Assembly: GCA_951812325.1 (NCBI GenBank)
Contig: OX638294.1
Coordinates: 3,198,859-3,262,858 of the forward strand
DNA from: an uncultured Thermoanaerobaculia bacterium
Lineage (GTDB): Bacteria > Acidobacteriota > Thermoanaerobaculia > Multivoradales > Multivoraceae
Reading direction: 5' to 3'
Length of the DNA stretch: 64,000 bases
Within the stretch, counting starts at the first letter, position 1; the number at the start of each line of letters is the position of its first letter. This document shows, one piece after another, positions 3,160 through 62,939 of this stretch. Both the position numbers and the translations under genes were made by a program. The notes beneath the pieces were generated by a model. It was not told where the DNA came from and made no database searches. It worked only from the letters and a program-made list of their open reading frames with translations.

Positions 3160-3171
3160 CGGAGGTCGCGC

Positions 3172-4008
3172 GTGGGCGTCGACTTGCGGGCAGCTGGGGC
3201 CGCCGCGGCGAGGACGGCCCGATGGTCACGGGATCCGTCGCCTGTGCGGTCGCCAAGGACGCGGCGCTGCCGCCATCGCGGCGACGACGGCCCGCTTGTC
3301 ACGACGCCCGGGTCGCTCATCAGCGTCGGCTTGCGGGCAGGTGCCGCGGCCGTTGCCCTGGTCCTGGGCGCTGCCCCGGCCTGGGCGGAACTGGCGCTTC
3401 TGACCAACGGCTACCGCTACCGGGTGACCGCGTGGGAGCTGCTCGAACAGCGGGGCACGAACACCGAGCGCATCCGGCTGACGCTGGAGAACGGCGGTTC
3501 GGTCACCCTGCCGTTGATTCGGGTCGAGCGCATCTTCGACGACGAGATCGTCGAGGAGCCGCCCCCCGAGGCGCCGCCGGAGGCCGGCTTCTCGCTCGAC
3601 TACCGACCGGGACAGACGGCGCCGGCCGTCCCCTGGGGTGAGCTGTTCCTGGAAGTCGGGCGGGAGCACGAGTTGAACCCCGACCTCCTGGCGGCGATGG
3701 CGCGCGCGGAGTCGGCCTACGATCCCGGCGCCGTCTCGTCGAAGGGCGCCCGCGGCTTGCTGCAACTCATGCCGGCGACCGCGGAGCGGTTCGGGGTCGC
3801 GGCGCGGGAGCTGCACGACCCGGCCCGCAACGTGCTCGCCGCGGCCCGCTATCTGACCTGGTTGCGCCGCCGGTTCGAGGACGACCTGCCGCGCGTGCTG
3901 GCCGGCTACAACGCGGGCGAAGGAGCGGTCGACGCCCACGACGGGGTGCCGCCCTACCGGGAGACGATGAACTTCATCGGCCGCGTCTACGGCTTCCTGG
4001 GCCTTTGA
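3172..4008 (+). CDS. Lytic transglycosylase (SLT domain), secreted
   Basis: Catalytic SLT motif ESAYDPGAVSSKGARGLLQLMPATA. The annotated start is probably too far upstream; TTG near 3331 would give signal peptide M-RAGAAAVALVLGAAPAWA. Confidence 0.75.
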   Translation: MGVDLRAAGAAAARTARWSRDPSPVRSPRTRRCRHRGDDGPLVTTPGSLISVGLRAGAAAVALVLGAAPAWAELALLTNGYRYRVTAWELLEQRGTNTERIRLTLENGGSVTLPLIRVERIFDDEIVEEPPPEAPPEAGFSLDYRPGQTAPAVPWGELFLEVGREHELNPDLLAAMARAESAYDPGAVSSKGARGLLQLMPATAERFGVAARELHDPARNVLAAARYLTWLRRRFEDDLPRVLAGYNAGEGAVDAHDGVPPYRETMNFIGRVYGFLGL

Positions 4009-4174
4009 ACACCGGGTTGCACGGGCGTTCCGGAAGCCCGCCCGGCGGCAGCGCCGCGAAGCCGCGCAGATGCCGGGTTTCCTGAGCGACTCCGCGGCGA
4101 CACCGCGGTGAGGTGGGCGCTCCGGGCCAGACACCCCGTCCTGAAACGAGGCTGGAGCGGCGGGCCTGGCGGTG

Positions 4175-5101
4175 TCAGGTGGCCCGTGGGTGATGGCGGT
4201 CGTACAGCGTGCGGAGCCGGTGCTCGTGGATATGGGTGTAGATCTGCGTGGTCGTGATGTTCGCGTGGCCGAGCATCACCTGCACGGCGCGCAGGTCGGC
4301 GCCGTGCTCGAGCAGGTGGGTGGCGAAGCTGTGGCGCAGCACGTGGGGCGACAGGTCGGGGATGCCGGCGCCCCGCCCGTAGTTCCTGAGCAGCTTCCAG
4401 AGTCCCTGCCGGGTCAGTCCGCCGCCGCGATAGCTGACGAAGACAACGTCGTGGCGGCCCTTCGCCATCACCGGCCGCACGTCCCTCAGGTAGCGGTTGA
4501 GCCAGGTCTCGGCCGACTCGCCCACCGGCACGACCCGTTCCTTGGCCCCCTTGCCGAACGCAATGAGGAAGCCCGCGTCGAGCTGGAGCTGGCTCCGTTC
4601 GAGGCCGACCATCTCGCTGACCCGCAGGCCTGTGGCGTAGAGCAACTCGATCATCGCCCGATCCCTCACTCCCGGAGGCCGGCTGGTGTCGGGGGCGCGG
4701 AGCAGAGCCCCGACCTGCTCTTCGCGGAGCACCCTGGGCAACCGACGGGGCAGCCGCGGCGGGTAGAGGTTGACTGCCGGGTTGTCGTCACGGTCGCCCT
4801 CGTGGACGAGGAAGGCGTAGAACCGGCGCATCGAGACCAGGGCGCGACTGATCGAGCGCGGCGACAGCCCCTCAAGGCGCAGTCGCCGCAGGTGACGCGC
4901 GAGCTGCTCCACGGTGGCAGCCAGCAGGTCGCCGCCGTCATCCTCCAGGTTGCTCCTCAGCCGAAGCAGGTCGCGCCGGTAGGCGTCCACCGTATGCCGG
5001 GAGAGGCCCCGCTCGACCAGCAGACCGTCGAGATAGCGGTCCAGTGTCCGCTCACTCCCGGACACCGCGGACGGCCGGCTCGAGGTCTTTGTCGCGGGCA
5101 T
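4175..5101 (-). CDS. xerD: Tyrosine site-specific recombinase XerD
   Basis: Internal ATG of the 870-aa ORF (MPATKTS...). Phage-integrase catalytic region LRHSFATHLLEHGADLRAVQVMLGHANITTTQIYTHI with the XerD-typical C-terminus ...HHPRAT. The upstream part of the long ORF is Arg/Ala-rich and rejected. Confidence 0.85.
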   Translation of the reverse strand: MPATKTSSRPSAVSGSERTLDRYLDGLLVERGLSRHTVDAYRRDLLRLRSNLEDDGGDLLAATVEQLARHLRRLRLEGLSPRSISRALVSMRRFYAFLVHEGDRDDNPAVNLYPPRLPRRLPRVLREEQVGALLRAPDTSRPPGVRDRAMIELLYATGLRVSEMVGLERSQLQLDAGFLIAFGKGAKERVVPVGESAETWLNRYLRDVRPVMAKGRHDVVFVSYRGGGLTRQGLWKLLRNYGRGAGIPDLSPHVLRHSFATHLLEHGADLRAVQVMLGHANITTTQIYTHIHEHRLRTLYDRHHPRAT

Positions 5102-5314
5102 GGGTCGTATGGCCAACAATCTATCAGTCGTGCTGGATACTCGATCATGCCGCTCTGGCCGGCGGCGCCGTTGGTCGGTTGCAGTAGAGATCACCGCTGG
5201 CCCGGCGCCGGTTCTCTGGGTGCGCGGTCCGTTGCGCGCGCCTTTGGCCCCCGATCCGAGCGCAGCGGCGAAGCGGCGAGCGCGAGTCGCGTTGCCCCGC
5301 GCTACGATTCCCCA

Positions 5315-6964
5315 ATGATCAAACGAGCTCTCGCCCTCGCGTTTCCTCTTCTCGCGTTTCTCCTCGGCGCCTGCAGCACACCCGCTCCGCCGCCCGATAC
5401 CGCAACCCAACTCGACACCTGGATCGCCGACCTGGCCGACGACGCGATGGAAGGCCGCGGCCCCGGCACGGCCGGCGACGTGATGGCGCGCCAGTACATC
5501 GCCGACGTGATGGCCGGCATGGGCCTCGAACCCGCGGCCGCCGACGGTAGCTGGGAGCAGCCCTTCGACATCGTCGGCATCGACGCGGCGGTGCCCGAGA
5601 CCTGGACGTTCCACTCCAGCGCCGGCGACAGCGTGGAGTTTGCGTTTTGGGACGAGTTCATCGCGCACAGCGGCGTCCAGTCGGAGCAGGCCGCGATCGA
5701 GAACGCCGAACTCGTGTTCGTCGGCTACGGCATCCAGGCGCCCGAGTACGGCTGGGACGACTACGGCGACGCGGACCTCGCCGGCAAGGTGCTCGTCATG
5801 CTGAACAACGATCCGGACTGGGATCCGGACCTGTTCGAGGGCGACCGCCGCCTCTACTACGGCCGCTGGACGTACAAGTACGAGAGCGCCGCGGCTCAGG
5901 GCGCCGTCGGTGCGATCATCATCCACACGACCCCTTCGGCGGGCTACCCGTTCCAGGTCGTACAGACCTCCTGGACCGGCCCGCAGTTCGAGCTTCCCGC
6001 GGAAGGCGAGGCCCGCACCCGGATCAACGCCTGGCTGACGGAGGAGGCCTCCCGACGGCTCTTCGCGCTGGCCGGCGTCGACTACGACGCGACCCTGGAA
6101 TCGGCCCGGAGCGCCGACTTCGTGCCGGTGCCGCTCGGCCTGTCGACCAGCCTTTCGCTGACGAACACGGTAACCAGCGAGCAGACCGCCAACGTGCTCG
6201 GCGCCCTGCCCGGCAGCGACCCGGAACTGGCCGACGAGTGGGTCGTCTTCACCGCCCACCACGACCACATGGGCATCTCGCCGGACGAGAGCCTGGAGGA
6301 CCGGATCTACAACGGCGCCCTGGACAACGCGGCCGGCGTTGCCCAGGTGCTCGCGGTCGCCGGCGAGCTGGCCGCGCAAGAGCCCGGTCCGAGCAGGTCC
6401 ATCCTGTTCGCCTTCGTCGGCGCCGAGGAGCAGGGACTGCTCGGCTCCGAGTACTACGCCGCTCATCCCACCGTGCCGCCCGGCAAGATGGCCGCGAACA
6501 TCAACTACGACGGCGGCAACCAGTGGGGCCGCACCCGCGACGTGACCTACATCGGCTACGGCAAATCGAGCCTCGACGGTGTCGTCGAAGCGGCCGCGGC
6601 CGAACAGGGCCGCACCGTGCTGCCCGACCAGTTCCCGGCCAACGGCTACTTCTACCGCTCGGACCAGTTGAACTTCGCCCGCATCGGCGTGCCGGCGATT
6701 TACCTGGACAACGGCACCGACTTCATCGACCGCCCCGAAGGCTGGGGCCACGAGCAGCTCAAGGCCTGGACCGAGAACATCTACCACCAGGTCTCCGACG
6801 AGTACGGCGAGGACTGGAACCTCGAAGGCATGGTCGACGACGTCGAACTCGGCCTCGCCTGCGCCCGCGCCATTTCCGAGAACCCCGAACTCCCGTCCTG
6901 GAACCCCGGCGACGAGTTCGAGGCGGCACGGTTGGCGGCGCTGGCCGCCGTGTCGGGCGAGTAG
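5315..6964 (+). CDS. M28-family zinc aminopeptidase lipoprotein with PA domain
   Basis: Starts at internal MIKRALALAFPLLAFLLGACS (lipobox). Has HHDHMG, NGALDNAAGVAQVL and FVGAEEQGLLGSEYY metal-ligand motifs. The 5' part of the track ORF is antisense to xerD and rejected. Confidence 0.8.
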   Translation: MIKRALALAFPLLAFLLGACSTPAPPPDTATQLDTWIADLADDAMEGRGPGTAGDVMARQYIADVMAGMGLEPAAADGSWEQPFDIVGIDAAVPETWTFHSSAGDSVEFAFWDEFIAHSGVQSEQAAIENAELVFVGYGIQAPEYGWDDYGDADLAGKVLVMLNNDPDWDPDLFEGDRRLYYGRWTYKYESAAAQGAVGAIIIHTTPSAGYPFQVVQTSWTGPQFELPAEGEARTRINAWLTEEASRRLFALAGVDYDATLESARSADFVPVPLGLSTSLSLTNTVTSEQTANVLGALPGSDPELADEWVVFTAHHDHMGISPDESLEDRIYNGALDNAAGVAQVLAVAGELAAQEPGPSRSILFAFVGAEEQGLLGSEYYAAHPTVPPGKMAANINYDGGNQWGRTRDVTYIGYGKSSLDGVVEAAAAEQGRTVLPDQFPANGYFYRSDQLNFARIGVPAIYLDNGTDFIDRPEGWGHEQLKAWTENIYHQVSDEYGEDWNLEGMVDDVELGLACARAISENPELPSWNPGDEFEAARLAALAAVSGE

Positions 6965-7034
6965 TGCGCGGCATGGGCGTCGGAAGCGCCCGTCCGCGTC
7001 CGGTCACACAAGCGCGCCGCAGCTCTGCCAGAGA

Positions 7035-7051
7035 GTCCCATGAGTGAAGCC
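7035..7051. repeat. Left arm of a 17-bp perfect inverted repeat (gtcccatgagtgaagcc) covering the CDGSH start codon
   Basis: Exact reverse complement of 7635-7651, read directly from the sequence. Confidence 0.8.
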
Positions 7052-7279
7052 CGTATAGCTGAGCGTGTTCCGGCCAAGATCGAACTCGAAGCCGGCGCCT
7101 ACTGGTGGTGCCGGTGCGGCGAGTCGAAGAACCAACCGTTCTGCGATGGATCCCATCGCGGTACGGACTTTGAGCCGATGCGGCTGACGTTGGAGGAGGA
7201 CCGCCGGGTCGCGCTCTGCCAGTGCAAGCGGAGCGACAAGATGCCGCACTGCGACGGCAGCCACAGGTTCCTGGACTGA
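7040..7279 (+). CDS. CDGSH iron-sulfur domain protein (two CDGSH motifs)
   Basis: 79 aa with WWCRCGESKNQPFCDGSH and CQCKRSDKMPHCDGSH. The start codon is embedded in the left arm of a 17-bp inverted repeat. Confidence 0.75.
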   Translation: MSEARIAERVPAKIELEAGAYWWCRCGESKNQPFCDGSHRGTDFEPMRLTLEEDRRVALCQCKRSDKMPHCDGSHRFLD

Positions 7280-7309
7280 GTCGTCTCGGATAGACCGGGA
7301 CACGCCAGC

Positions 7310-7630
7310 ATGCCAGACTGTCTCTCTCATGCGATACGGAAGGCTCGAATGACGACGGAGAGTTCGATGTTGCACGTCCGGATGGACGCCGAGATGAAGC
7401 GGAAGGCGACGGCAGCGCTCGCAGCGATGGGACTGACGGCTTCGGAGGCCGTGCGGCTGTTGTTTCACCGCATCGCCGTCGATCAGGCCTTCCCGCTCGA
7501 GCTCAAGGTGCCGAACGCGCGGACCCGCCACGCCATGGCCGAGGTGGACGAGATGGTGGAGAAGCGCAGCGCGCGGTTCGCCAGCGCGGACGAGGTGTCT
7601 GCGGAGCTTGAAAAAGCCAGCGTCCGCTAG
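7310..7630 (+). CDS. RelB/DinJ-family type II antitoxin (orphan)
   Basis: MKRKATAALAAMGLTASEAVRLLFHRIAVDQAFPLELKVPNARTRHAM resembles DinJ. The true start is probably Met14 (about 7349). No RelE/YafQ-like toxin ORF follows. Confidence 0.65.
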   Translation: MPDCLSHAIRKARMTTESSMLHVRMDAEMKRKATAALAAMGLTASEAVRLLFHRIAVDQAFPLELKVPNARTRHAMAEVDEMVEKRSARFASADEVSAELEKASVR

Positions 7631-7634
7631 AGCT

Positions 7635-7651
7635 GGCTTCACTCATGGGAC
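7635..7651. repeat. Right arm of the 17-bp inverted repeat (ggcttcactcatgggac), also part of a local hairpin after the dinJ stop
   Basis: Reverse complement of 7035-7051. Locally agctgg...ccagct forms a 6-7 bp stem-loop right after the dinJ stop, followed by a T-containing tract. Confidence 0.8.
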
Positions 7652-7721
7652 CAGCTCCTCTGTCTATTCGAACAGTTCCGCGTGCGTGCCTGCACGCGCC
7701 AAGTAGATGGACCAGTGCCGC

Positions 7722-7868
7722 ATGAGCGACCCTAACTGGAAGAACCGCACTCTCCGGACGGGGCGCGACAATCTTGAAGTCATGCGTGGCCTGAACTCCG
7801 AGTCGGTGGACCTCATCTACCTTGACCGGGGACTAAGTCTCAGGCGCAATTCCTGCGCGAACGCATGA
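7722..7868 (+). pseudogene. 5' fragment of a beta-class N6/N4 DNA methyltransferase (about 33 conserved N-terminal residues, no DPPY motif)
   Basis: My translation MSDPNWKNRTLRTGRDNLEVMRGLNSESVDLIYLD matches the N-termini of CcrM-like N6_N4 MTases (xxGDCLExMxxLPxxSVDLIFADPPY). The ORF then degenerates (RGLSLRRNSCANA*) and stops after 48 codons. Confidence 0.55.
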
Positions 7869-7977
7869 GTCTGCAAAGCACGGTCACTTCCTGGCTGGGG
7901 AGTGGATGAAGAAGAACCTGTAGGCCGTCCTCGAGACCAAGACGGACATCTTCGACAGCGGGACGCGCTCGCGCATC

Positions 7978-8403
7978 ATGGCGAGAGTCCGGAACCGGAA
8001 CACTGGGCCGGAGTTGATCCTGCGCCGGGCGCTCCACGCCCGCGGGCTGCGGTACAAGCTACACGATTCCGCGCTTCCCGGTCGGCCGGATCTCGTCTTT
8101 CCTCGTTTCGGAGCGGTTTGCTTCATGCACGGCTGTTTCTGGCATCGCCACGAAGGCTGTCGCCGCGCGACGACACCGGCGACCAACAGGAGTTCTTGGG
8201 AGCGGAAGTTCGCGGCAAATGTTCGGCGTGACCGGAAGAACCGGATGGCACTGCTTGAGGCCGGCTGGCGTGTCGGGGTGGTCTGGGAGTGCGCTCTACG
8301 CCCCAAGGAGCGCTTGGAGGCGGTGGCAGCGAGTGTTGAGGGATGGCTGAAGGGACAGCGCAAGGAGTTCACAGCCGGTCGCCGGCAGGCTGGCGGGTCA
8401 TAG
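7978..8403 (+). CDS. vsr: Very-short-patch repair endonuclease Vsr
   Basis: 141 aa. LPGRPDLVF...CFMHGCFWHRHEGC...WERKFAANVRRDRKNRMALLEAGWRVGVVWECAL aligns with E. coli Vsr. The D51, H64, H69 and E25 equivalents are present. Confidence 0.85.
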   Translation: MARVRNRNTGPELILRRALHARGLRYKLHDSALPGRPDLVFPRFGAVCFMHGCFWHRHEGCRRATTPATNRSSWERKFAANVRRDRKNRMALLEAGWRVGVVWECALRPKERLEAVAASVEGWLKGQRKEFTAGRRQAGGS

Positions 8404-26656: not shown

Positions 26657-27376
26657 GTGGCGGCCCCGGAGTTGCTGGAGGCGTTGGCAACGGCGGCGCG
26701 GAGCGGCCGGGGCCATGAGCCCTGGGTGTTCTACCCGCAGGATGGCCGCTGGCGTTGGTGGTCGTTCAGGCGGGGCTGGATGGAGGTCGAGCGCTGGCGG
26801 GCGGCGTTCGCTCGTGGCGGCGGAGCGTCCATCGACCAGGCCCCGGCGCCGCAGACCTCTCCGCAGGCGCTCTGTTGTCACCTCGCGGCAGCCCGCGCGG
26901 AGGCAACCGGCGTGGAATCGGCGGCTTCGACCGCGTTCGACGGGCTGCTGGCGCCGCGGCGGCTGGCGCGGGAGATCGTCGTCGTCACGCCTCCCGCGGC
27001 GGCGTCGCCGAGCGAGGTGGACCGTCTGGCGGAGCCGTGGCTGCACTGGTGCTGCCTGAACCTGGCCGTCCTGGTACTCGAACCGAGCCGCGGCGCCCTG
27101 GTCGGTTCGGTCTTGTGGTGCCGGCCGACGGTGCTCCTTGCCGGTCTCGAGCAGGAGCGCGCGCTCGCCGCAGCGGTGCGGGAACGCAGCCGGGACCGCG
27201 TTCGCCGGGCCGCGGCCCTGGTCGACCGGCTCCGTGTTCTCCTCGTCGCGGCCGACGACCGCGGCGCCGTTGGCGAAGCCCCGGCGCCGGCCGGCTTCTG
27301 GCGTTCCCGGGGCGTGCAGCGGCGCCTGGTGTACCGGGAAGACGTCGATCCCTCCACCCGCGTGCCCGAGGTGTAG
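26657..27376 (+). CDS. Hypothetical protein
   Basis: 239-aa ORF divergent from the M48 gene. High GC3 consistent with coding, Trp-rich (WVFYPQDGRWRWWSF), no recognisable motif. Real start uncertain. Confidence 0.4.
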   Translation: MAAPELLEALATAARSGRGHEPWVFYPQDGRWRWWSFRRGWMEVERWRAAFARGGGASIDQAPAPQTSPQALCCHLAAARAEATGVESAASTAFDGLLAPRRLAREIVVVTPPAAASPSEVDRLAEPWLHWCCLNLAVLVLEPSRGALVGSVLWCRPTVLLAGLEQERALAAAVRERSRDRVRRAAALVDRLRVLLVAADDRGAVGEAPAPAGFWRSRGVQRRLVYREDVDPSTRVPEV

Positions 27377-27519
27377 CTGCCCGGCGCCCGCAGGCGTGCA
27401 CCGCGCCGGTCGCAGCGCCCGCCCGCCCGAGTCGGGTCGTTGATACAGTGCCGACTGATGAACATTGCGGGCCGGTGCGTTGCGGATGCGACTCCGGCCC
27501 TGCGCCAGGGAGGCTCAGG

Positions 27520-28674
27520 ATGAGGTTCCGGAGACGGCAGGGGGCTACGGTCATCCGGCGCCGGCCGCTGTTGGCTCTGCGCGCCCTTCCGGAGTTCGCC
27601 CGTGGTCTCGGACGGCAAGCTGCGGCCGTCCGGTACTGGCCGCTGTGGGCGCTGCTCCTGGCGGCGGCGGCTGGTCCCGCGCCGGCCGGGGCGGCGGACT
27701 TCACGATCAAGATGGCGACGCTGTCGCCCGACGGGTCGCCCTGGGACGGATTCTTCGAAACGATGGGCCGGGACTGGGAGAAGGGAACCGATGGCCGGGT
27801 CAGCTTGACCATCTATCCCGGCGGCGTGGCGGGGGACGAGCCGGACATCCTGCGCAAGATGAAGATCGGCCAGTACCACGCGGCCGCTCTCTCGGTCAGC
27901 GGTCTGGCCGACATCTCCAGGGACTTCACCGTCTTCGAGATACCTCTCTTCTTCCGCTCCGAGCGCGAGATGTTCCATGTGCTGCGGGAACTGACACCCG
28001 GCTTGCGGACGACGCTCGACGAGAAGGGCTTCGTGCTCCTGGGCTGGGGCTACGTTGGCCAGGTCCACTTCTTCACGAATGAACGGGCGCGCACCGTCGA
28101 GGAGATGCAGGAGCTCAGGATCTTCACCTGGGCCGGCGACCAGGCGATGACGAACTGGTGGCGCCAGGGCGGTTTCAAGCCGGTCGCGCTGGCCGCCACG
28201 GATATCGTGACCGGCCTGCAGACCGGCATGATCGATGCCCTCGCGGTGCCGCCGATCTACGCCATGTCGGTCCAGTTCTTCAAGCAGGCGAAGTACTTCG
28301 CCGACATTCCGCTGATCCCCATGATGGGCGCCATCGTGGTCACGAAGCGGGCCTGGAACCGGGTCTCGGAAGCGGATCGGGGGGTGCTGGTCGATGGCGG
28401 TCAGCGGGCCGAGAACCGGATCTTCGAGACGATTCCCGACATCGAGCAGGCGACGATCAAGCTGATGGGCGGCCAGGGCCTCGAAGTCGTCCCGATCGTG
28501 GGCACCGAGGTCGAGGACGACTGGAAACGCATCGCCAACAGCTTTGCCGACGACATGCGGGGCAAGGTCGTGCCGGCGGCGATCTTCGACCGGGCGACGG
28601 CGGTACGGGACGCGTACCGGCAGCGTCAGGAGGCCGAAGCGGCCGCGTCTGCCGCTGCCGACGGCAGCCGTTAA
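27520..28674 (+). CDS. dctP: TRAP transporter solute-binding protein DctP
   Basis: Internal ATG (MRFRRRQG...) with GGGAGG RBS. Signal peptide, then DctP-family sequence. The track ORF's long N-terminal extension is rejected. Confidence 0.85.
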   Translation: MRFRRRQGATVIRRRPLLALRALPEFARGLGRQAAAVRYWPLWALLLAAAAGPAPAGAADFTIKMATLSPDGSPWDGFFETMGRDWEKGTDGRVSLTIYPGGVAGDEPDILRKMKIGQYHAAALSVSGLADISRDFTVFEIPLFFRSEREMFHVLRELTPGLRTTLDEKGFVLLGWGYVGQVHFFTNERARTVEEMQELRIFTWAGDQAMTNWWRQGGFKPVALAATDIVTGLQTGMIDALAVPPIYAMSVQFFKQAKYFADIPLIPMMGAIVVTKRAWNRVSEADRGVLVDGGQRAENRIFETIPDIEQATIKLMGGQGLEVVPIVGTEVEDDWKRIANSFADDMRGKVVPAAIFDRATAVRDAYRQRQEAEAAASAAADGSR

Positions 28675-28863
28675 CGCCGCCAGACCTAAGGGGCCCCACA
28701 CGCCATGTTCGGCTCCAGCCCCCACTTCGCCAGGACCCTTCACCGCGCCGCCTGCTGCGCTGTTGTTTCTGCGGTTCAAGCGCCCGCCGCCCCGGCGAAG
28801 ACGGCAACGTGAAGGCGCGGGCACTCTGCCCGCATTCGGTGCGCAGCGCCGTCGGGTGTTCGC

Positions 28864-30780
28864 TTGACCGGTAAGGGCGCCTCGCCCCGGCTCCGAGCGG
28901 CAGGGCGCCTCCTGCATCGGGTCGAAGACGGCCTTTCGAGCGTCCTTTTGGCCGCCATGGTGCTGCTGCCCTTGGCGGAGATCGTCGTGCGTCAGACCGG
29001 CGCCGGGATTCCCGGCGCGCTTCCCTTCGAACAGCATCTGACCCTGTGGATCGCTTTCCTGGGCGCGGCCCTGGCAGCGCGCGAGGGACGCCTGCTGGCC
29101 TTGGCCACCGGGAACTTCCTGCCCGAAGGCCGGTTCCGGGCGATCGCCGCGGTCTTCACCGGCGGCGTCAGCGCGATGGTGACGACGTTGCTCGGCAGGG
29201 CCAGCTTGGACCTGGTGCAGATCGAGCGCGAGGGCGGTATCGAGATGGCGGCCGGCGTACCCGTCTGGGTGGGCCAGGCTGTCATGCCGTTGGGCTTTGC
29301 GCTCCTGGCCCTGCGACTGGCCTGGAAGTCGTCGGAACTCTGGGCCGGGCGCGCCCTGGCCGCGTTTGGCATCGTGCTGGGGCTGTGGATCGGCGGCAAC
29401 GCCGAGGCGTTCGGCGAGCTTCCGGCGACACCCTGGCTGGTCCTGATCCTGGCTTCGACCCTGCTCGGCGGGCCGATCTTCGCCGCCCTCGGCGGCGCCG
29501 GGGTGTTTCTGTTCCTGTCCGACTTCGTGCCGCTCGCTGCGATTCCGGCCGAGAGCTACCGGCTCGCCGTGTCGCCCACCCTGGCGGCGATCCCGCTGTT
29601 CACGCTGACTGGCTTCCTGCTCGCCGAGGGCGGGGCGTCGGAGAGGCTGCTCAGGGTGTTCCGCGCCCTGTTCGGCTGGGCGCCGGGCAGCACCGCCGTC
29701 GTGTGCGCCGTCGTCTGCGCGTTCTTCACCGTCTTCACGGGCGGTTCCGGCGTCACGATTCTGGCGCTGGGCGGCGTGCTCTTCGCCGCCCTTTCGGCCG
29801 ATGGCTACCGTGAGCGCTTCTCGCTCGGTCTGCTTACGTCGTCGGGTTCGCTCGGCCTCCTGTTGCCGCCGGCCCTGCCGCTCATCCTCTTCGGCATCGT
29901 CGCGCAGGTGCCGATCGAGGATCTGTTCATTGGGGGGATCCTCCCCGGCCTGCTCCTGATCGCGCTGATTGCTGCGTGGGGCGTCAGGGAGGGGTTGCGC
30001 GCCGGCGCTGGCGGGACCTCGATCTCCGGGAAGGAAGAGGGGGGCGCCACCGGCCCGGGCGAATGGGAAGGGTTGCCGCCCGTCTTGAGGCGATTGCTGC
30101 CGCCCGGCGTCATCGAGATGGTGTGGGCAGTCTGGGGCGGCAAGTGGGAGCTGCTGCTGCCTGTCGTCGTCCTGGGCGCCTTCTTCAGCGGCTACGCGAC
30201 CCTGGTCGAAACGGCCGCGCTGGCGGCTCTCTACGCCTTCGTCGTCCAGTGCCTGATCCACCGGGACGTGAAGCTGGGCAAGCCCCTGCTGGCCGTCTTC
30301 CGGCAGTGCACCGTGCTGGTCGGTGGCGTGCTGATCATCCTGGTCGTGGCAATGGGACTCACGAGTTGGCTGGTCGATGTCCAGGCGGCCCAGAGTCTGG
30401 TTGAACTTGCCCAGGACAACATCGAGTCGAAGATCCTGTTCCTGTTGCTGCTGAACGTCTTTCTGCTCCTCGTCGGCTGCCTGATGGACATCTTCTCGGC
30501 CACGGTGGTCGTCGTCCCCCTGATCGTCCCGCTCGGTCTGGCCTTCGGCGTCGATCCGATCCACCTCGGGATCATCTTCGTCGCGAATCTGGAGCTCGGG
30601 TACCTGACGCCGCCGGTCGGCCTCAACCTGTTCCTCGCGTCCTATCGCTTCGAGCGGCCGCTGCTCGAGATCTACCGGGCCGCGGCGCCGGCACTCGTCA
30701 TACTCGGCGTCGGCGTGCTGCTGATCACCTACGTGCCGGTTCTGACCCTGGGCCTGCTTGAGCTGTTGGGGAAGCGGTAG
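28864..30780 (+). CDS. TRAP transporter fused small/large permease DctQM
   Basis: 638 aa. DctQ-like N-terminal four TM helices followed by the DctM 12-TM permease. Confidence 0.85.
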   Translation: MTGKGASPRLRAAGRLLHRVEDGLSSVLLAAMVLLPLAEIVVRQTGAGIPGALPFEQHLTLWIAFLGAALAAREGRLLALATGNFLPEGRFRAIAAVFTGGVSAMVTTLLGRASLDLVQIEREGGIEMAAGVPVWVGQAVMPLGFALLALRLAWKSSELWAGRALAAFGIVLGLWIGGNAEAFGELPATPWLVLILASTLLGGPIFAALGGAGVFLFLSDFVPLAAIPAESYRLAVSPTLAAIPLFTLTGFLLAEGGASERLLRVFRALFGWAPGSTAVVCAVVCAFFTVFTGGSGVTILALGGVLFAALSADGYRERFSLGLLTSSGSLGLLLPPALPLILFGIVAQVPIEDLFIGGILPGLLLIALIAAWGVREGLRAGAGGTSISGKEEGGATGPGEWEGLPPVLRRLLPPGVIEMVWAVWGGKWELLLPVVVLGAFFSGYATLVETAALAALYAFVVQCLIHRDVKLGKPLLAVFRQCTVLVGGVLIILVVAMGLTSWLVDVQAAQSLVELAQDNIESKILFLLLLNVFLLLVGCLMDIFSATVVVVPLIVPLGLAFGVDPIHLGIIFVANLELGYLTPPVGLNLFLASYRFERPLLEIYRAAAPALVILGVGVLLITYVPVLTLGLLELLGKR

Positions 30781-30932
30781 CCGGGAACGCCTCGACGGCT
30801 TGTGAAGGCTTGAACTGAGGCCATCGGCACTTCTGATGCCCGGCACGCGGGGTCGTGTATCGTCATGGATCCGGCTGGCGTTGTTCGCAGACCGCCGGAC
30901 ACTCGGCCTGCACACTGACGGAGACAACACTC

Positions 30933-31625
30933 GTGCGAATCGAGCCGGAGATCAGTGCCGTGAGCGTCGTGCTGCTTGGCTCTTTCAACCCGGCCATCTT
31001 CACTCCCGCCTGGTTCGGGCTGCAGGGCCTCCTGCCAAGGGCGGCAGTGGAGAGCGCCGAGCTGGGCGTTGCCCACGCAAGCGTTACGGAGTTCGCTGCC
31101 GAGTGGCTGAAGCTGGGCGTCCGGCCCGACAGGTTTGCGGCCGAGACGTCGCAGGCGCCATTGATCCGGGTCAGCGACCTGGTAGTGCGGACGTTTCGAG
31201 AGCTGCTGCCCCACACCCCCATCGAGGCGCTCGGGATCAATCGGGAAGTCCACTTCCGGGTACTGAGCGTGGCTGAGCGAGACCGGATCGGTCGGAAGCT
31301 GGCGCCCACCGAACCTTGGGGAGATTGGGGAAGGCTCATTGAACCTGACGGCGCTCACGGCGGGATGACGTCGCTCACGATGAGGCAGCAACGAGTGGAA
31401 GGCCGGCCTCCGGAAGATACGATCAACGTGACGGTGGAACCTTCGGTGCGCCTCGGGAGTACGGGCGTCTTTGTGCGTGTGAACGACCACTACACGGCTC
31501 ACGGGAACGGTCACGAGGGAGGCAGCGTCCTGATCGAGCGGCTGGAAGGAGAGTTCGAAGAGTCGAGGGAACGCAGCGAGAGCTTGATCGACCAGGTCAT
31601 GTCGCTCGCCGGAGGGCAGGACTGA
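30933..31625 (+). CDS. Hypothetical protein (gene 1 of a three-gene coupled cassette)
   Basis: GTG start (VRIEPEISAVSVVLLGSFNPAIFTPAWF) with GGAGA 9 nt upstream. Stop overlaps the next start (TGATG). No recognisable motif. Confidence 0.55.
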   Translation: MRIEPEISAVSVVLLGSFNPAIFTPAWFGLQGLLPRAAVESAELGVAHASVTEFAAEWLKLGVRPDRFAAETSQAPLIRVSDLVVRTFRELLPHTPIEALGINREVHFRVLSVAERDRIGRKLAPTEPWGDWGRLIEPDGAHGGMTSLTMRQQRVEGRPPEDTINVTVEPSVRLGSTGVFVRVNDHYTAHGNGHEGGSVLIERLEGEFEESRERSESLIDQVMSLAGGQD

Positions 31626-32209
31626 TGTCCCTTTCTGCTGTTGTCGAGCGTCGGAGCGGGACGTCGGACTCCGTTGGCGGAAACCAACCGACCGGGATGC
31701 GGGCCAGCATCGATCGCGAACCGATCTTGCGTCTTGTCGAGGGCTTTCCGTCGATCTTCTTTGCCGGGAGCACCGACTCCCAACAAGAGCGGCGTTCTGA
31801 GGGCTCGTCCTTCGGAGACCTCGGAAGCGTGGATTTTGCCAGGATTCCGGCACCCAGACCCGACCACGCTCGACCGCAGGCGACGCTTCACGCTCTTCAG
31901 GAGTGGGAGGGCTTCGTGGTCGGGATCGGATCCGAGACGTTCGAGGCGCGGCTCCTCGACGTGACCGCCGGAGACCGCTGCGACTCCGCGGAGGCGACGA
32001 TCCCGCTCCAGGAGATCGCTCATGGAGATCTCGAACGGATGGAGATCGGCAGTATCTTCAGGTGGGTGATCGGCCATGAGATCTCCTCAGCCGGGTCCAA
32101 GCGGCGGGTTTCGCAGATCGTCTTCCGGGACCTGCCGGCAGTGACGCGCGCCGCCGAGCGCGCCGGCAGCCGATGGGCTCGGAACGTCATGGACAAGTTC
32201 GGTCTGTGA
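31625..32209 (+). CDS. Hypothetical protein (gene 2 of cassette)
   Basis: 194 aa. ATG overlaps the previous stop. Its stop overlaps the GTG of the next gene (GTGA). No recognisable motif. Confidence 0.5.
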   Translation: MSLSAVVERRSGTSDSVGGNQPTGMRASIDREPILRLVEGFPSIFFAGSTDSQQERRSEGSSFGDLGSVDFARIPAPRPDHARPQATLHALQEWEGFVVGIGSETFEARLLDVTAGDRCDSAEATIPLQEIAHGDLERMEIGSIFRWVIGHEISSAGSKRRVSQIVFRDLPAVTRAAERAGSRWARNVMDKFGL

Positions 32210-33279
32210 GCTCGGGCTTCGGCCTTCCTCCGGCCCCCGAAGAGTTTGAACTCACTGTGATCGGGCCGGGGTACGGCGAGAGCGTCGTGGTTCATTTGGG
32301 CCGTGGCGCGTGGATGATCGTGGATTCCTGCGTCGATTCCGGAGGAGCGCCTCACCCGTTGCGCTACCTGGAGGACCTTGGCATCGAGCCGGCGGAGTCC
32401 GTTCGGTTCGTCGTTGCGACCCATTGGCACGACGACCACATCAGGGGCATGGCGCAAGTCGTCACTCGCTGCCTGAGAGCGCGTTTCTGCTGCTCGGGCG
32501 CTTTGGCAAGAAGGGAGTTCCTGGTTGCGGTGGGGAAGAGCGAAGAGCGGCCACGCTCGCGTGTTTCGTCAGGATTGAGGGAGTTGCACGGGGTGTTCAG
32601 TCAGCTCTCCGAGAAGCCGACATGGGCTCTCGCAGATCGCCTGGTTCACAGAAGTTCGGACTCGGAAGTCTGGGCGCTTTCGCCGGACGACCTGGTCTTC
32701 AAGCGCTTCCTCGACTCCCTGGCGGGGCTGCTGCCTGATCGTGGCGCCCCGAAGAGGCGCATTCCGGACCTGTCGCCCAACGAGGTGTCGGTCGTGCTCT
32801 GGGTCCGCAGTGCGGGGGGCGTTGCCCTGTTGGGGGCAGATCTCGAGCGAGCTGGCTGGCAGCGTACTCTGGGCCGGGGAACAAGGCCAGAGGGCTTGGC
32901 TTCGGCGTTCAAGGTGCCGCATCACGGTGCAGAGACTGCGCACGAACCGGGAGTGTGGAAGCAGATGCTGACGCCCTCGCCTGTGGCGGTCCTCACGCCT
33001 TGGACGAGGGGCGGTCGAAGGCTCCCCGGTAGAGCGGACCTAAGCCGAATCCTCAGTGAGACGCCTCACGCCTACGCGACGGCGCCTCCGGGCCGGGTGC
33101 GCAGGGGGAAGCAACAGAGGCAGGTCGCACGAACACTCCGGGAAACGGGCGCTGAGGTCCGACGGGATGGGCAGCGGTTCGGGGCGGTTCGCCTGCGCAA
33201 GAGTCTCGACGATGCGGGGGAGTGGAGCATCGAGACCTTGGGTACTGCAGTGAGGTTGGGCGCAGGACGGCCCGCCTGA
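32206..33279 (+). CDS. Metallo-beta-lactamase-fold hydrolase (gene 3 of cassette)
   Basis: GTG start overlapping the upstream stop. MBL signature VVATHWHDDHIRG (HxHxDH) and a downstream FKVPHHGAE His-His motif. Confidence 0.65.
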   Translation: MSSGFGLPPAPEEFELTVIGPGYGESVVVHLGRGAWMIVDSCVDSGGAPHPLRYLEDLGIEPAESVRFVVATHWHDDHIRGMAQVVTRCLRARFCCSGALARREFLVAVGKSEERPRSRVSSGLRELHGVFSQLSEKPTWALADRLVHRSSDSEVWALSPDDLVFKRFLDSLAGLLPDRGAPKRRIPDLSPNEVSVVLWVRSAGGVALLGADLERAGWQRTLGRGTRPEGLASAFKVPHHGAETAHEPGVWKQMLTPSPVAVLTPWTRGGRRLPGRADLSRILSETPHAYATAPPGRVRRGKQQRQVARTLRETGAEVRRDGQRFGAVRLRKSLDDAGEWSIETLGTAVRLGAGRPA

Positions 33280-33511
33280 CCTGACTCGCAGCGAGCCGCT
33301 CGACGGCTTCGGTGGACGGCCAGGCCAGGGCTCAGGCCAGGTGCCGGGTTCTCTCTCCTGTCCGACCAGTGCCGCATCCCCGGGCGGCGAAGTCGAGGCT
33401 TCGACCGCGTCCCGGCCATGGTGGGGCGGCATGGTCGCCGCCCCTGGGTTCAGGTCACCGGTCGCGAGGCCGCCGGACCAACGTGTCCGTGACGCGTAGG
33501 ATAGGCGCCAG

Positions 33512-34069
33512 ATGAACTTGCGGCGTCTGCAGAGCATCGCCGTCCTCTGGTCGGCGGTCTTCGTGGTCGCCGCCATCCTGACCCTGGTGGGTCTTCAGGT
33601 CGTGCCGCGGGGCGTGCCGGGTCTGGTCGGGGCGTTGCATGCCCTCGTCGCGGCGGTCGGCTTCTTCTGCGGCGTCGCGGCGACCCGGCGCCGGGCGGAG
33701 ATCGAGGCTGAGCGTTGGAAGCGCGTGGAGGACGTGGACCTCACGTCGAGCGAGCGGGAGCATGCGCACCGGGAGGCGGAATCGGAACTGAAGCGAGCGA
33801 GCGCGCAGTTCCTGCTCGTCGGCGTGACGCTCGGCGGCTGGCTCGCCTACCAGTTGCGCGCCGAACGCCCGCAGGCGGGCGCCGCGGTCGCGGAGCTTCT
33901 CGGCGGCGAGGCGCCCCCCGTCGAGACCGCGGCAGAGGCCCTCGCTTCGGCGCCCGTGTACAGCCTGAGTGCCTCCGATCTGCTCATTGCGACGCCGCTG
34001 ATCGCCTTCGGTCTCGGCATGCTGTGGGCGCGCCGGGGCGCCGCCCGGTCAGCGCCCCGTGAGGGCTGA
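33512..34069 (+). CDS. Hypothetical membrane protein
   Basis: 185 aa. Two or three predicted TM helices (AVLWSAVFVVAAILTLVGL; LHALVAAVGFFCGVAA). Confidence 0.45.
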   Translation: MNLRRLQSIAVLWSAVFVVAAILTLVGLQVVPRGVPGLVGALHALVAAVGFFCGVAATRRRAEIEAERWKRVEDVDLTSSEREHAHREAESELKRASAQFLLVGVTLGGWLAYQLRAERPQAGAAVAELLGGEAPPVETAAEALASAPVYSLSASDLLIATPLIAFGLGMLWARRGAARSAPREG

Positions 34070-62733: not shown

Positions 62734-62939
62734 CGGGCGGTGGTCTGGCTCGGCGCCCGCCGCCCGGCTCGAAGGCGCCGCCCCGCCGGCGTGTACCGCT
62801 AACGGGCGGTGGTCTGGCTCGGCGCCCGCAGCCCGGCTTTGAAGGCGCCGCCCCGCCGGCGTGTACCGCTAACGGGCGGTGGTCTGGCTCGGCGCCCGCC
62901 GCCCGGCTTGAAGGCGCCGTCCCGCCGGCGTCAGGCGAT
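62731..62939. repeat. About 70-bp tandem repeat x3 spanning the convergent 3' ends of the MT-A70 MTase (+) and fic (-)
   Basis: Units begin at 62731, 62800 and 62870 with taacgggcggtggtctggctcggcgcccgc(c/a)gcccggct...gtgtaccgc. Copy 1 supplies the MTase TAA; copy 3 supplies the fic stop (cta) and last 15 codons. Confidence 0.85.

Follow-up and report, generated by a model that had tools for sequence, protein, structure and literature searches.

What do three overlapping genes encode together when they stand between a TRAP transporter and a membrane/Smr gene of an uncultured Thermoanaerobaculia bacterium? A sequence-only reading had described them as a possible accessory or defence module. We analyzed the whole stretch of 64,000 nucleotides (the window) together with 80 related genome loci and more distant copies. 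Our preferred reading, to which we give a probability of about 0.6, is that the triad forms a defence cassette which is autonomous, works through a nuclease and belongs to a family not yet described. No description of this triad was found in the literature.

Layout and accessory status of the cassette

The three genes are co-directional on the + strand in the ORF list and its translations. Gene order at this site is DctP, fused DctQ/DctM, the triad, a 185-aa protein without a family and Smr, in agreement with the position given by the sequence-only reading. The features are as follows.

30781..33511, + strand: whole inserted segment of about 2.73 kb (152-bp leader, three genes, 232-bp trailer)
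30791..30801, + strand: left copy of the 11-nt direct repeat CTCGACGGCTT, 11 nt past the DctQM stop
30851..30864, + strand: conserved upstream motif GGTC[G/A]TGTATCGTC, 65-79 nt 5' of the gene 1 start
30933..31625, + strand: gene 1, 230 aa (GTG start at 30933, TGA stop at 31623-31625)
31625..32209, + strand: gene 2, 194 aa (ATG start at 31625, TGA stop at 32207-32209)
32206..33279, + strand: gene 3, 357 aa (GTG start at 32206, TGA stop at 33277-33279)
33299..33309, + strand: right copy of CTCGACGGCTT, 20 nt past the gene 3 stop

GGAG lies upstream of the gene 1 start (30920-30923) and GGAGGG ahead of that of gene 2 (31611-31616). Since 36 homologues begin with MRIEPE, a longer reading of gene 1 from 30855 was discarded; gene 3 has an alternative ATG start at 32173, which would give 368 aa. 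A 1350-aa minus-strand ORF (26878-30930) was read as a high-GC artefact. It runs antisense to the TRAP genes, and the DctP and DctQ/DctM matches are on the + strand.

The overlaps TGATG (gene 1/gene 2) and GTGA (gene 2/gene 3), on which the earlier proposal of an obligate operon had been based, were both read in the sequence. Genes 2 and 3 overlap by 4 nt, as GTGA or ATGA, in 62 of some 78 related loci (GTGA in 60), and genes 1 and 2 are for the most part spaced by -4 to +5 nt. Because overlaps and short gaps recur across these loci, the translational coupling is conserved and does not reflect chance. The order gene 1, gene 2, gene 3 on the same strand was kept in all 80 related loci, in copies of 28-42% identity on an Adhaeribacter swui plasmid and on IMG/VR contigs, and in a prophage (locus L090). 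The plasmid triad, which is lower in GC, spans 3121-5471 of NZ_CP055155. The obligate three-gene operon was thus borne out, and co-occurrence across genomes, proposed earlier as a check, was complete (80/80).

The triad is accessory and exchanged horizontally, as indicated by presence/absence polymorphism, variable insertion sites and discordant dS. In blastn of the window against the relative L097, window positions 30126-30770 matched 2470-3114 and 33511-34069 matched 3142-3718, and the segment 30781..33511 was missing from this empty site. There 15 bp separate the DctQM stop from the ATG of the membrane gene, and the triad is missing. In L007 the triad lies on the other side of the same membrane gene, at a different insertion point. 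Against L010, dS was 0.54-0.74 for the triad and 0.045-0.06 for the flanks, a difference of about 10-fold. These results contradict a triad that is core and syntenic in all relatives, the outcome named earlier as incompatible with an accessory module. Composition also differed as had been noted: GC was 0.63-0.66 in the cassette versus 0.69-0.75 in the flanks, and GC3 was 0.74-0.78 in the triad versus 0.88-0.90 in the adjacent genes. Within the window clade, genes 1 and 3 had a dN/dS of 0.12-0.24 and gene 2 one of 0.37-0.49; all three genes are under purifying selection (0.12-0.5).

The upstream motif is common to the window, L007, L008, L009, L010 and L022 despite their differing insertion sites, and we infer that it is probably a promoter or operator travelling with the cassette. 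A sigma-70 scan of the cassette region gave no promoter, and the motif had no match to the sigma-70 consensus. Three terminator-like sites did not exceed shuffled sequences, Rfam on 30500-33800 gave a sub-threshold snoRNA match only, and no triad-gene remnants, as a scar of cassette replacement might leave, were found in the 152-bp leader and 232-bp trailer.

The direct repeat CTCGACGGCTT occurs twice in the 64-kb window, once at each cassette border; 0.06 occurrences were expected, and at least two were found in 0 of 100 shuffles. A simple target-site duplication was ruled out because the repeat is absent from the empty site of L097, and its significance is uncertain.

Predicted products of the three genes

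The earlier statement that genes 1 and 2 have no recognised motifs agreed with Pfam, NCBIfam and PADLOC, which gave none. Fold searches, suggested at that time for these two genes, yielded weak fold matches in Foldseek.

Gene 1 has a mean column identity of 65% in its alignment (A1), with N19, P20, W27, H94, N103, H107 and N184-D185-H186-Y187 invariant. Its family comprises 2442 clusters at 50% identity (E<=1e-3), and no match was obtained for it in Pfam, NCBIfam, PADLOC or PDB sequences. The AF2 model (pLDDT 88) consists of two consecutive beta-alpha-beta4-alpha units; hhalign of the two halves gave no signal of an internal duplication. As modelled, the product is a very conserved two-lobed alpha/beta sandwich, TBP-like or AdoMetDC-like, without a family. 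The top Foldseek match in the PDB was AdoMetDC/prozyme, with an E-value of 3e-5 but a TM of 0.32. In BFVD, the best structural neighbour was an unnamed viral protein, A0A515MGR4 (E 4.6e-10, TM 0.54-0.60), and a viral putative TATA-box-binding protein (TBP) was matched with a probability of 1.0. While the Foldseek probability of 0.99-1.0 speaks for likeness to AdoMetDC/prozyme and the viral putative TBP, TM to TBP and AdoMetDC was 0.32-0.35, identity was 7-10%, and no functional residues of AdoMetDC or TBP could be mapped; the fold assignment is weak. The product is a putative sensor or regulatory subunit.

Gene 2 is composed of a hypervariable, disordered N-terminal stretch of about 85 aa followed by a conserved domain of about 110 aa (alignment A2). 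In the AF2 model, residues 1-68 have pLDDT below 50 and residues 87-192 have 78-97, and the C-terminal domain forms a beta-barrel of five strands and a helix, which is probably an OB fold. Foldseek gave weak matches to the N-terminal OB fold of LysRS and to exosome S1 subunits (E 0.02-0.15, probability 0.90-0.98), with low TM because of the disordered half. The OB-fold assignment, at E 0.02, is weak; no sequence match was found. The whole protein gave no match in Pfam or NCBIfam, none in PADLOC at E<=1, and a weak one to phrog_32134. Its dN/dS was 0.4-0.65 in the N-terminal part and 0.04-0.38 in the C-terminal part. Two assemblies contain a gene 1-gene 2 fusion protein (P0363/P0517). We regard the gene 2 product as a putative nucleic-acid-binding adaptor.

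Gene 3 bears the HxHxDH signature that had been reported for it, read as THWHDDH in the translation. In 39 sequences, H73, H75, D76, D77 and H78 are invariant, as are D212, H239 and H240; no invariant histidine lies between residues 78 and 212, the expected place of the third MBL metal-binding motif. The protein matches Pfam PF00753 in its N-terminal part only (24.8 bits against a threshold of 22.7, E 2.5e-5), and a C-terminal domain of about 90 aa follows the MBL domain. The gene 3 profile matched the MBL domain of ComEC among PDB entries (9ic4_A, E 6.7e-9; 30bt_A, E 1e-7). The aligned regions are HxHxDH, N-x-x-x-V-L, [GS]xD[LI]E and PHHG, with D212 placed in G[AS]D[LM]E and H239/H240 in PHHG, both aligned to ComEC. 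The homology is at the domain level: against TIGR00361, gene 3 scored 15 bits (cut-off 190) over residues 190-246 only. The MBL domain of ComEC is reported as a nuclease. Gene 3 is a probable MBL-fold metal-dependent hydrolase of the ComEC nuclease type and a putative DNase effector.

In a housekeeping role, the MBL enzyme might hydrolyse a small molecule, or the triad might be an accessory complex of DNA repair or recombination. The MBL fold does span many hydrolases, and the window copy lies beside a TRAP transporter and others beside acetate kinase and enolase-family genes. These neighbours are not conserved, however, and a close relative has the empty site. Gene 3 scored far under the cut-offs of lactonase, glyoxalase, RNase Z and beta-lactamase models, its best homology is to the ComEC nuclease domain, and the repeated nesting in restriction-modification (R-M) operons described below is unexpected for a metabolic enzyme. 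We consider this explanation highly improbable. A metabolic pathway joining genes 1 and 2 to the MBL enzyme, which would have spoken against a defence module, did not emerge, the nearest relative of gene 3 being the nuclease-type MBL domain of ComEC.

The gene products could also be viewed as an addiction module resembling a toxin-antitoxin system, in which gene 3 would be a toxic nuclease curbed by gene 1 and/or gene 2. The module would persist because its loss kills the cell, and would stabilise the islands that carry it. The small, overlapping, co-transcribed genes with the enzyme last would suit such a module, and the disordered region of gene 2 resembles many labile antitoxins. The distribution is patchy and mobile, including one plasmid copy that adjoins a recombinase. 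The disordered tail is, however, the least conserved part, which would not be expected of a toxin-binding segment, and conservation is higher in gene 1 than in gene 3, the putative toxin. No DNA-binding antitoxin fold (HTH, RHH, AbrB) was detected, and 2.3 kb is large for such a system. Since many toxin-antitoxin-like systems are abortive-infection defences, this explanation overlaps our preferred one; as a separate account we consider it rather unlikely.

Distribution and nesting in immune loci

The closest relative of the window triad is in a Thermoanaerobaculia MAG (L008), with 84% identity on gene 1. Amino-acid identity of the triad is 55-64% across at least 11 phylum-level labels. This near-identical spread over a dozen phyla, with names typical of marine-sponge symbionts, would show, in a concrete case, defence genes being exchanged among members of one host-associated community; Robbins et al. 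(PMC8163846) proposed that sponge symbionts pass sponge-enriched genes to one another laterally.

One could suppose that the triad is a tool of mobile elements, a phage or plasmid nuclease complex for host-DNA degradation, competitor exclusion or DNA-end processing, of which chromosomal copies would be remnants. Locus L090 is a genuine prophage that carries genes for a replication initiator, an anti-repressor, terminase and portal as well as the triad and a DpdA-like TGT/QueC/FolE cluster; gene 3 matched phrog_28593 (E 1.6e-30) besides the weak phrog match of gene 2, and a few IMG/VR contigs carry the triad. Yet such contigs number only 5-8 among 2.9 million, tblastn with the window gene 3 and L090 genes 1 and 3 gave no match in 50,697 GenBank phage records, and one record matched among 72,556 plasmids, suggesting that most family members are chromosomal and outside prophages. 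Integrase, transposase and phage genes are absent from the flanks of the window copy. The prophage copy itself equally fits the preferred reading of a defence cassette, as accessory regions of prophages often carry defence genes. A mobile-element tool is therefore very unlikely in our estimate.

Many triads are nested in immune loci. In about 24 loci the triad lies inside the arrangement DUF499(HmaC)-DUF7680-[triad]-DUF1156 MTase(HmaB)-PLD/SNF2 helicase, and in about 10 it goes with MTase_III-SoFic-[triad]-REase_III, between or beside the Type III mod and res genes. Septu PtuA/PtuB is embedded alongside the triad in several loci, and in L060 a Type I HsdR lies upstream of it. Scattered matches to MADS, ShosA, AriA, RT, Cas1 and IIG were found next to otherwise standalone triads. 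As a raw count, known defence genes lie within two genes or 10 kb in about 35-45 of the 80 loci. The other half or so, including the window, stand among housekeeping genes without a recurrent partner, so the guilt-by-association signal is partial. In the standalone loci, 97 and 103 Pfam families were counted among 79 and 82 neighbouring genes, none of them in more than three; with no recurrent neighbour, the three genes suffice as a unit.

The Hma or Type-2 BREX-related set consists of a DUF499 ATPase, a DUF1156 N6-MTase, an SNF2 helicase, an HKD nuclease and a small DUF3780-like protein (PMC12839542), and the triad in these loci is a guest, not a core component. Of nine cases tested by Payne et al. 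(bioRxiv 10.1101/2024.01.29.577857), nesting in Hma loci correctly pointed to functional defence genes in seven. The accessory character proposed earlier for the cassette was thus supported by the empty site and its link with defence by this embedding, the function itself being putative.

Nesting also bears on the possibility that the triad is a dependent auxiliary effector or reader of methylation-based R-M-like systems (Hma/BR type 2, Type III, Type I), standalone copies being orphans that use modification elsewhere or are being lost. In some 35 of the 80 loci the triad shares its direction with an operon of MTase and helicase or nuclease genes and frequently lies within it, at gaps of tens of bases, and the prophage copy adjoins a 7-deazaguanine DNA-modification cluster. 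Auxiliary and backup nucleases are, moreover, a general theme of BREX/BR loci (Rakesh and Krishnan, PMC12839542). Dependence is difficult to reconcile with the more than 40 standalone loci in which all three genes are intact, with the dN/dS of the window clade, and with host systems of at least three unrelated kinds. In L005 a transposase separates the triad from DUF499/DUF7680, and Septu and SoFic, known to be autonomous, are nested in the same slots. When the 64-kb window was searched with HMMs built from the Hma/BR type-2 proteins of related loci (DUF499, DUF1156 MTase, SNF2 helicase with HKD nuclease), none was found. We consider dependence on a host system unlikely.

Proposed mechanism and likeness to known systems

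Under the preferred reading of an autonomous defence cassette, we infer that the triad has nuclease activity and serves in defence, that its products form a complex, and what genes 1 and 2 contribute. As effector, gene 3 would act as a metal-dependent MBL-fold nuclease like the DNA-degrading domain of ComEC. Gene 2 would contribute an OB-fold nucleic-acid-binding domain, with its long, fast-evolving disordered tail serving in tethering or regulation. Gene 1, the most conserved part, would be a two-lobed, saddle-like alpha/beta sensor or regulator, and it is proposed to bind gene 2 because the two occur fused. Coupled translation would supply the three proteins in fixed proportion, and a single complex of them may bind foreign DNA of phage or plasmid origin and degrade it. 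It counts against this mechanism that a standalone DNase has no obvious way of sparing the host chromosome.

A more speculative scheme, which we think improbable, is that the triad nuclease reads DNA modification. The triad would then be a portable, plug-in restriction unit without a methyltransferase of its own, borrowing self-protection from the system in which it is nested. Gene 1 would read modified or unmodified DNA, the gene 2 OB fold would load the ComEC-type nuclease, and standalone copies would use a modification system elsewhere in the genome. Sources of modification in such a scheme would be m6A from Hma or Type III methylases, and 7-deazaguanine in the L090 prophage.

Should the cassette prove to function in immunity, the known defence repertoire would gain a three-protein, NTPase-free architecture, in which a ComEC-type MBL nuclease is accompanied by a saddle-like protein and a probable OB-fold protein; two of these protein families are currently unnamed. 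Its nesting in Hma, Type III and Type I loci offers a clean further test of guilt by embedding.

[quoted passage not shown] MBL, OB and gene 1-like proteins are all missing from HEC-01 to HEC-09; these candidates were rejected as the triad, as was PDC-M48, which is a two-gene candidate. MBL or lactamase is absent from the main text and supplementary files of the Payne preprint (bioRxiv 10.1101/2024.01.29.577857) and from the main text of Rakesh and Krishnan 2026 (PMC12839542). In the Hma loci, the triad takes the slot between HmaC (with DUF7680) and HmaB, where Septu is also found.

PADLOC-DB v2.0.0, including its PDC candidates, gave no match to genes 1 and 2 at E<=1, and its matches to gene 3 were all partial (RTasMBL, E 5.6e-4; LmuA, 8.8e-4; PDC-M48B, 0.021). 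Gene 3 reached E 0.026 against 6A-MBL (NF058524; 13.7 against a cut-off of 220 bits) and E 0.18 against Avs1a of AVAST type 1 (NF041809; 10.5 against 420 bits). DRT, Lamassu, 6A-MBL and Avs1 resemble the triad in having an MBL-fold presumed effector, but the matches cover only the generic first 75-95 residues. Identity with 6A-MBL, a Pseudomonas jumbo-phage defence, was rejected, the similarity being that of MBL folds in general. The partner proteins of these systems (reverse transcriptase, SMC-like LmuB and STAND ATPase) are absent from the triad, which has no NTPase of any kind.

ComEC pairs an OB fold with an MBL domain, and the probable OB fold of gene 2 together with the MBL domain of gene 3 resembles this pairing. 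Gene 3 is like ComEC/Rec2 in that the C-terminal MBL nuclease-type domain of the latter aligns with it, but it is a separate 357-aa gene without the membrane competence domain and with its own C-terminal domain of about 90 aa. The triad further differs in carrying the OB domain on a separate protein without detectable sequence similarity to ComEC, and in having gene 1 as a third component. How ComEC handles DNA could become clearer from a soluble relative of its nuclease domain that has a separate OB partner. The genomic context differs as well, the triad being found in immune loci and not among competence genes.

Gene structure and conservation of the operon

The three open reading frames proposed in the sequence-only reading were confirmed as real genes, with the following positions in the window:

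30933-31625, + strand: gene 1, from GTG 30933 to TGA 31623-31625, with GGAG upstream at 30920-30923
31625-32209, + strand: gene 2, from ATG 31625 to TGA 32207-32209, with GGAGGG nine bases 5' of the start
32206-33279, + strand: gene 3, starting at GTG 32206, with an alternative in-frame ATG at 32173

A longer gene 1 frame from 30855 was rejected because 36 homologues all start at the same MRIEPE. Both overlaps claimed from the sequence were found: the ATG of gene 2 shares its A with the TGA of gene 1 (TGATG), and gene 2 and gene 3 overlap by GTGA at GTG 32206. The family alignment of gene 3 starts at this GTG, and the copy of the window genome in the protein collection is recorded from ATG 32173 (368 aa). 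In 62 of about 78 related loci, gene 2 and gene 3 overlap by 4 nt (GTGA in 60); the gap between gene 1 and gene 2 was mostly -4 to +5 nt. The coupling of the three genes is conserved. A 1350-aa ORF on the opposite strand (26878-30930, -) lies antisense to DctP and DctQM, whose Pfam matches are on the + strand, and was read as a high-GC artefact and not as a gene, similar long shadow ORFs being present throughout the window.

Roughly 700-1,500 relatives of each protein were found in a collection of 5.8 billion proteins, and the profile search with gene 1 gave 2,442 clusters at 50% identity. When one genome per species was scanned, 179 genomes had a close gene 1 relative; the scan patterns had been fitted to the close subfamily, and the family at large certainly extends beyond sponges. 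The order gene 1-gene 2-gene 3 on the same strand was present in all loci fetched (80/80), the few exceptions being contig ends or disrupted genes. It was also kept in copies only 28-42% identical, on a handful of IMG/VR contigs and on a plasmid of the cultured Adhaeribacter swui, where the triad is annotated as 'hypothetical / hypothetical / MBL fold metallo-hydrolase'. The order kept across the 80 loci and the distant copies bears out the obligate operon that the overlaps had suggested. In two assemblies gene 1 and gene 2 are fused (438 aa), with an overlapping gene 3 start directly after, which argues that the two proteins would be in contact when working.

Exchange at the TRAP-Smr interval

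The cassette is flanked, as described earlier, by a TRAP transporter (DctP and a fused DctQ/DctM) and by a 185-aa protein without family followed by Smr. Its GC content is indeed lower than that of the surroundings (0.63-0.66 versus 0.69-0.75), and GC3 is 0.74-0.78 versus 0.88-0.90 in adjacent genes. In the metagenome contig L097, whose flanks are 84-94% identical to the window at the DNA level, the 2.73-kb stretch 30781-33511 is missing, and the ATG of the 185-aa gene comes 15 bp after the DctQM stop. In the related locus L007, the triad was found on the opposite side of the 185-aa gene. Between the 185-aa membrane gene and Smr, other inserts without annotation are present in L097 and in another related locus, L022. 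That of L097, which lacks the triad, is about 2.35 kb (L097:3718-6071) and contains ORFs of 335 and 229 aa without Pfam family; the one in L022 is different again (about 2.7 kb, L022:12181-14905). With these inserts and the triad position in L007, the interval looks like a small integration hotspot.

In comparison with the related locus L010, dS was 0.045 for the flanking DctQM and 0.059 for the 979-aa gene, whereas it was 0.54-0.74 for the cassette genes. This contrast indicates that the history of the cassette differs from that of its surroundings, by allele replacement or separate acquisition. The empty site, the other insertion point and the discordant dS bear out the accessory status proposed earlier. 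The dN/dS values (0.12-0.24 for genes 1 and 3, 0.37-0.49 for gene 2) show purifying selection on all three genes.

Several noncoding features were observed at the borders. An exact 11-nt direct repeat, CTCGACGGCTT, closely flanks the coding block on both sides (30791-30801 and 33299-33309); these are its only two copies in the 64 kb, at least two copies occurred in 0 of 100 shuffles, and it is absent from the empty site of L097. The motif GGTC[G/A]TGTATCGTC at 30851-30864, 65-79 nt 5' of gene 1, is kept in six loci of the window clade, even at differing genomic sites; the upstream regions of 67 further loci were examined and lack it. About 190 bp 3' of gene 3 (33291-33481) are missing in L010 and in L008, the closest relative, where the membrane gene follows gene 3 almost directly; neither a coding remnant nor an Rfam match was found in this stretch.

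Immune loci and host lineages

In about 24 loci, the triad is placed between a DUF499 ATPase with a small DUF7680 protein and a DUF1156 adenine methylase with a PLD/SNF2 helicase, co-directional with these neighbours and separated by tens of bases. PADLOC names the partners HmaC, HmaB and PLD_Helicase/BrxH/DrmD-like; the Hma system is the Type-2 BREX-related system of Rakesh and Krishnan (PMC12839542). Several Hma loci also have a Septu pair (PtuA/PtuB) nested at this position, and genes nested in Hma loci were anti-phage active in 7 of 9 cases (Payne et al., bioRxiv 10.1101/2024.01.29.577857). About 10 loci combine a Type III methylase, a SoFic-like protein and a Type III restriction subunit, with the triad placed between these genes or immediately ahead of them, and in one locus it follows a Type I HsdR. 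That the triad is a dependent auxiliary effector of such R-M-like systems is unlikely. In the remaining loci, about 43 including the window, none of the Hma, Type III and Type I HsdR families was found within 10 kb. The two nearest genes per side there gave 97 and 103 Pfam families, none in more than 3 loci, and a few neighbours were of defence type (MADS, ShosA, AriA, reverse transcriptase, Cas1, a IIG enzyme). Thus the triad is tied to no particular partner and turns up in immune loci time and again, as an autonomous defence cassette does.

We consider a defence cassette the most likely reading, with a probability of about 0.6. The earlier cautious reading of an accessory unit with possible defence function was supported by gene order, exchange and nesting in immune loci, defence itself being the putative function. 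An addiction or toxin-antitoxin-like module is a little less probable than the auxiliary effector, and a housekeeping or metabolic role is the least probable of all the readings considered. The idea that the triad is a tool of mobile elements, which is quite improbable, was prompted by a distant triad in a prophage contig of 40% GC (L090, IMGVR_UViG_2921114623_000001, 5676-8007). This triad has an anti-repressor/replication module on one side and a 7-deazaguanine DNA-modification cluster (DpdA-like TGT, QueC, GTP cyclohydrolase) on the other, with terminase and portal genes downstream.

Some loci showed possible rearrangements. In three related loci (L001:12541-12768, L003:12541-12768, L004:7780-8007), the segment between gene 3 and the nested Septu genes contains part of another copy of the conserved gene 2 C-terminal domain (75 aa, 110-117 bits), which hints at recombination between cassettes. 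In L002/L013:11272-14055, gene 3 and the C-terminal part of the DUF1156 methylase are fused in frame (927 aa); compared with L001, Septu and the N-terminus of the methylase seem to have been deleted. In the window itself, an ORF 30 kb from the cassette (62869-63921, -) matches an HMM made with the SoFic-like Fic proteins found alongside the triad in Type III R-M loci; its vicinity gave no hit to a methylase or helicase of those families.

Close relatives (55-64% identity) came from at least 11 phylum-level groups, including Acidobacteriota, Gemmatimonadota, Latescibacterota, Binatia, Alpha- and Gammaproteobacteria, Nitrospirota, Poribacteria, Chloroflexota/SAR202, Entotheonella, Rhodothermales, Spirochaetia and Thermodesulfobacteriota. 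Nearly all are MAGs, and their names match the typical marine-sponge lineages listed by Robbins et al., who also found R-M and CRISPR to be enriched in sponge symbionts (PMC8163846). From the record titles, we infer a sponge origin of these MAGs. A GPP34 (PF05719) gene (L006:14438-15088), 3' of a Type III R-M and triad locus, would fit such an origin, as the family is reportedly tied to sponge symbiosis in a 2025 paper (PMC11706023).

Proteins, putative mechanism and known systems

Of the three, gene 1 shows the strongest conservation (mean column identity of 65% across phyla), with invariant N19, P20, W27, H94, N103, H107 and N184-D185-H186-Y187. Its model (pLDDT 88) consists of two beta-alpha-beta4-alpha units. 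Foldseek matched AdoMetDC/prozyme (E 3e-5, TM 0.32) and a viral putative TATA-box-binding protein (prob 1.0, TM 0.35), and the only good structural neighbour was an unnamed viral protein (TM 0.54-0.60). We read the model as a TBP-like/AdoMetDC-like double sandwich without close known relative. In gene 2, residues ~1-85 are hypervariable and predicted to be disordered, and the tail, with omega 0.4-0.65, is under relaxed, not positive, selection. Residues 87-192 are conserved and predicted to form five strands and a helix (pLDDT 78-97); Foldseek matched them weakly, though consistently, with OB folds (LysRS anticodon-binding domain, exosome S1 subunits). Against PHROGs, gene 2 gave only a marginal match, to the unnamed phrog_32134 (E 0.026). 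Neither gene has a family in Pfam (2025), NCBIfam (June 2026) or PADLOC.

The HxHxDH signature claimed for gene 3 is present as THWHDDH, and the Pfam MBL threshold was passed. A profile of 39 sequences matched the ComEC beta-lactamase-like domain (9ic4_A, E 6.7e-9; 30bt_A, 1e-7) across the HxHxDH region and the N-x-x-x-V-L...D-[LI]-E...PHHG region. Among the invariant residues are H73, H75, D76, D77, H78, D212, H239, H240 and several cysteines, and a C-terminal domain about 90 residues long is also conserved. Judged by these matches, gene 3 is an MBL superfamily member and a domain-level relative of ComEC, not a ComEC. The ComEC domain was reportedly described by Silale, Lea and Berks in 2021 as a metal-dependent nuclease. 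The metabolic MBLs (lactonases, glyoxalase II, RNase Z, beta-lactamases) were rejected, as were the defence MBLs 6A-MBL and Avs1a, because the model scores were far under the cut-offs.

For the defence cassette, we tentatively propose one complex of three proteins, the specifics of which are doubtful. Gene 2 would bind nucleic acid by its predicted OB domain, the MBL domain of gene 3 would be the putative cutter of the bound nucleic acid, and gene 1 might sense or gate via DNA or a ligand. ComEC too joins an OB fold with an MBL domain; if this pairing holds, the triad would be the same OB-MBL pairing, split and soluble. The main difficulty for a standalone-DNase mechanism is the sparing of the host chromosome.

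Among known defence systems, gene 3 belongs to none of the PADLOC v2 families and is not a member of 6A-MBL or Avs1a. None of the Hma-embedded candidate (HEC) systems of Payne et al. is the triad, and an MBL protein is mentioned neither in the main text of that paper or of the BREX survey nor in the supplementary files of Payne et al. HEC-07, a defence protein from the same study, also has an AdoMetDC-like N-terminal domain and is a lead for gene 1. No description of the three-protein, NTPase-free architecture was found in searchable sources. Nuclease-effector cassettes nested in R-M-like loci are already well known as a general kind.
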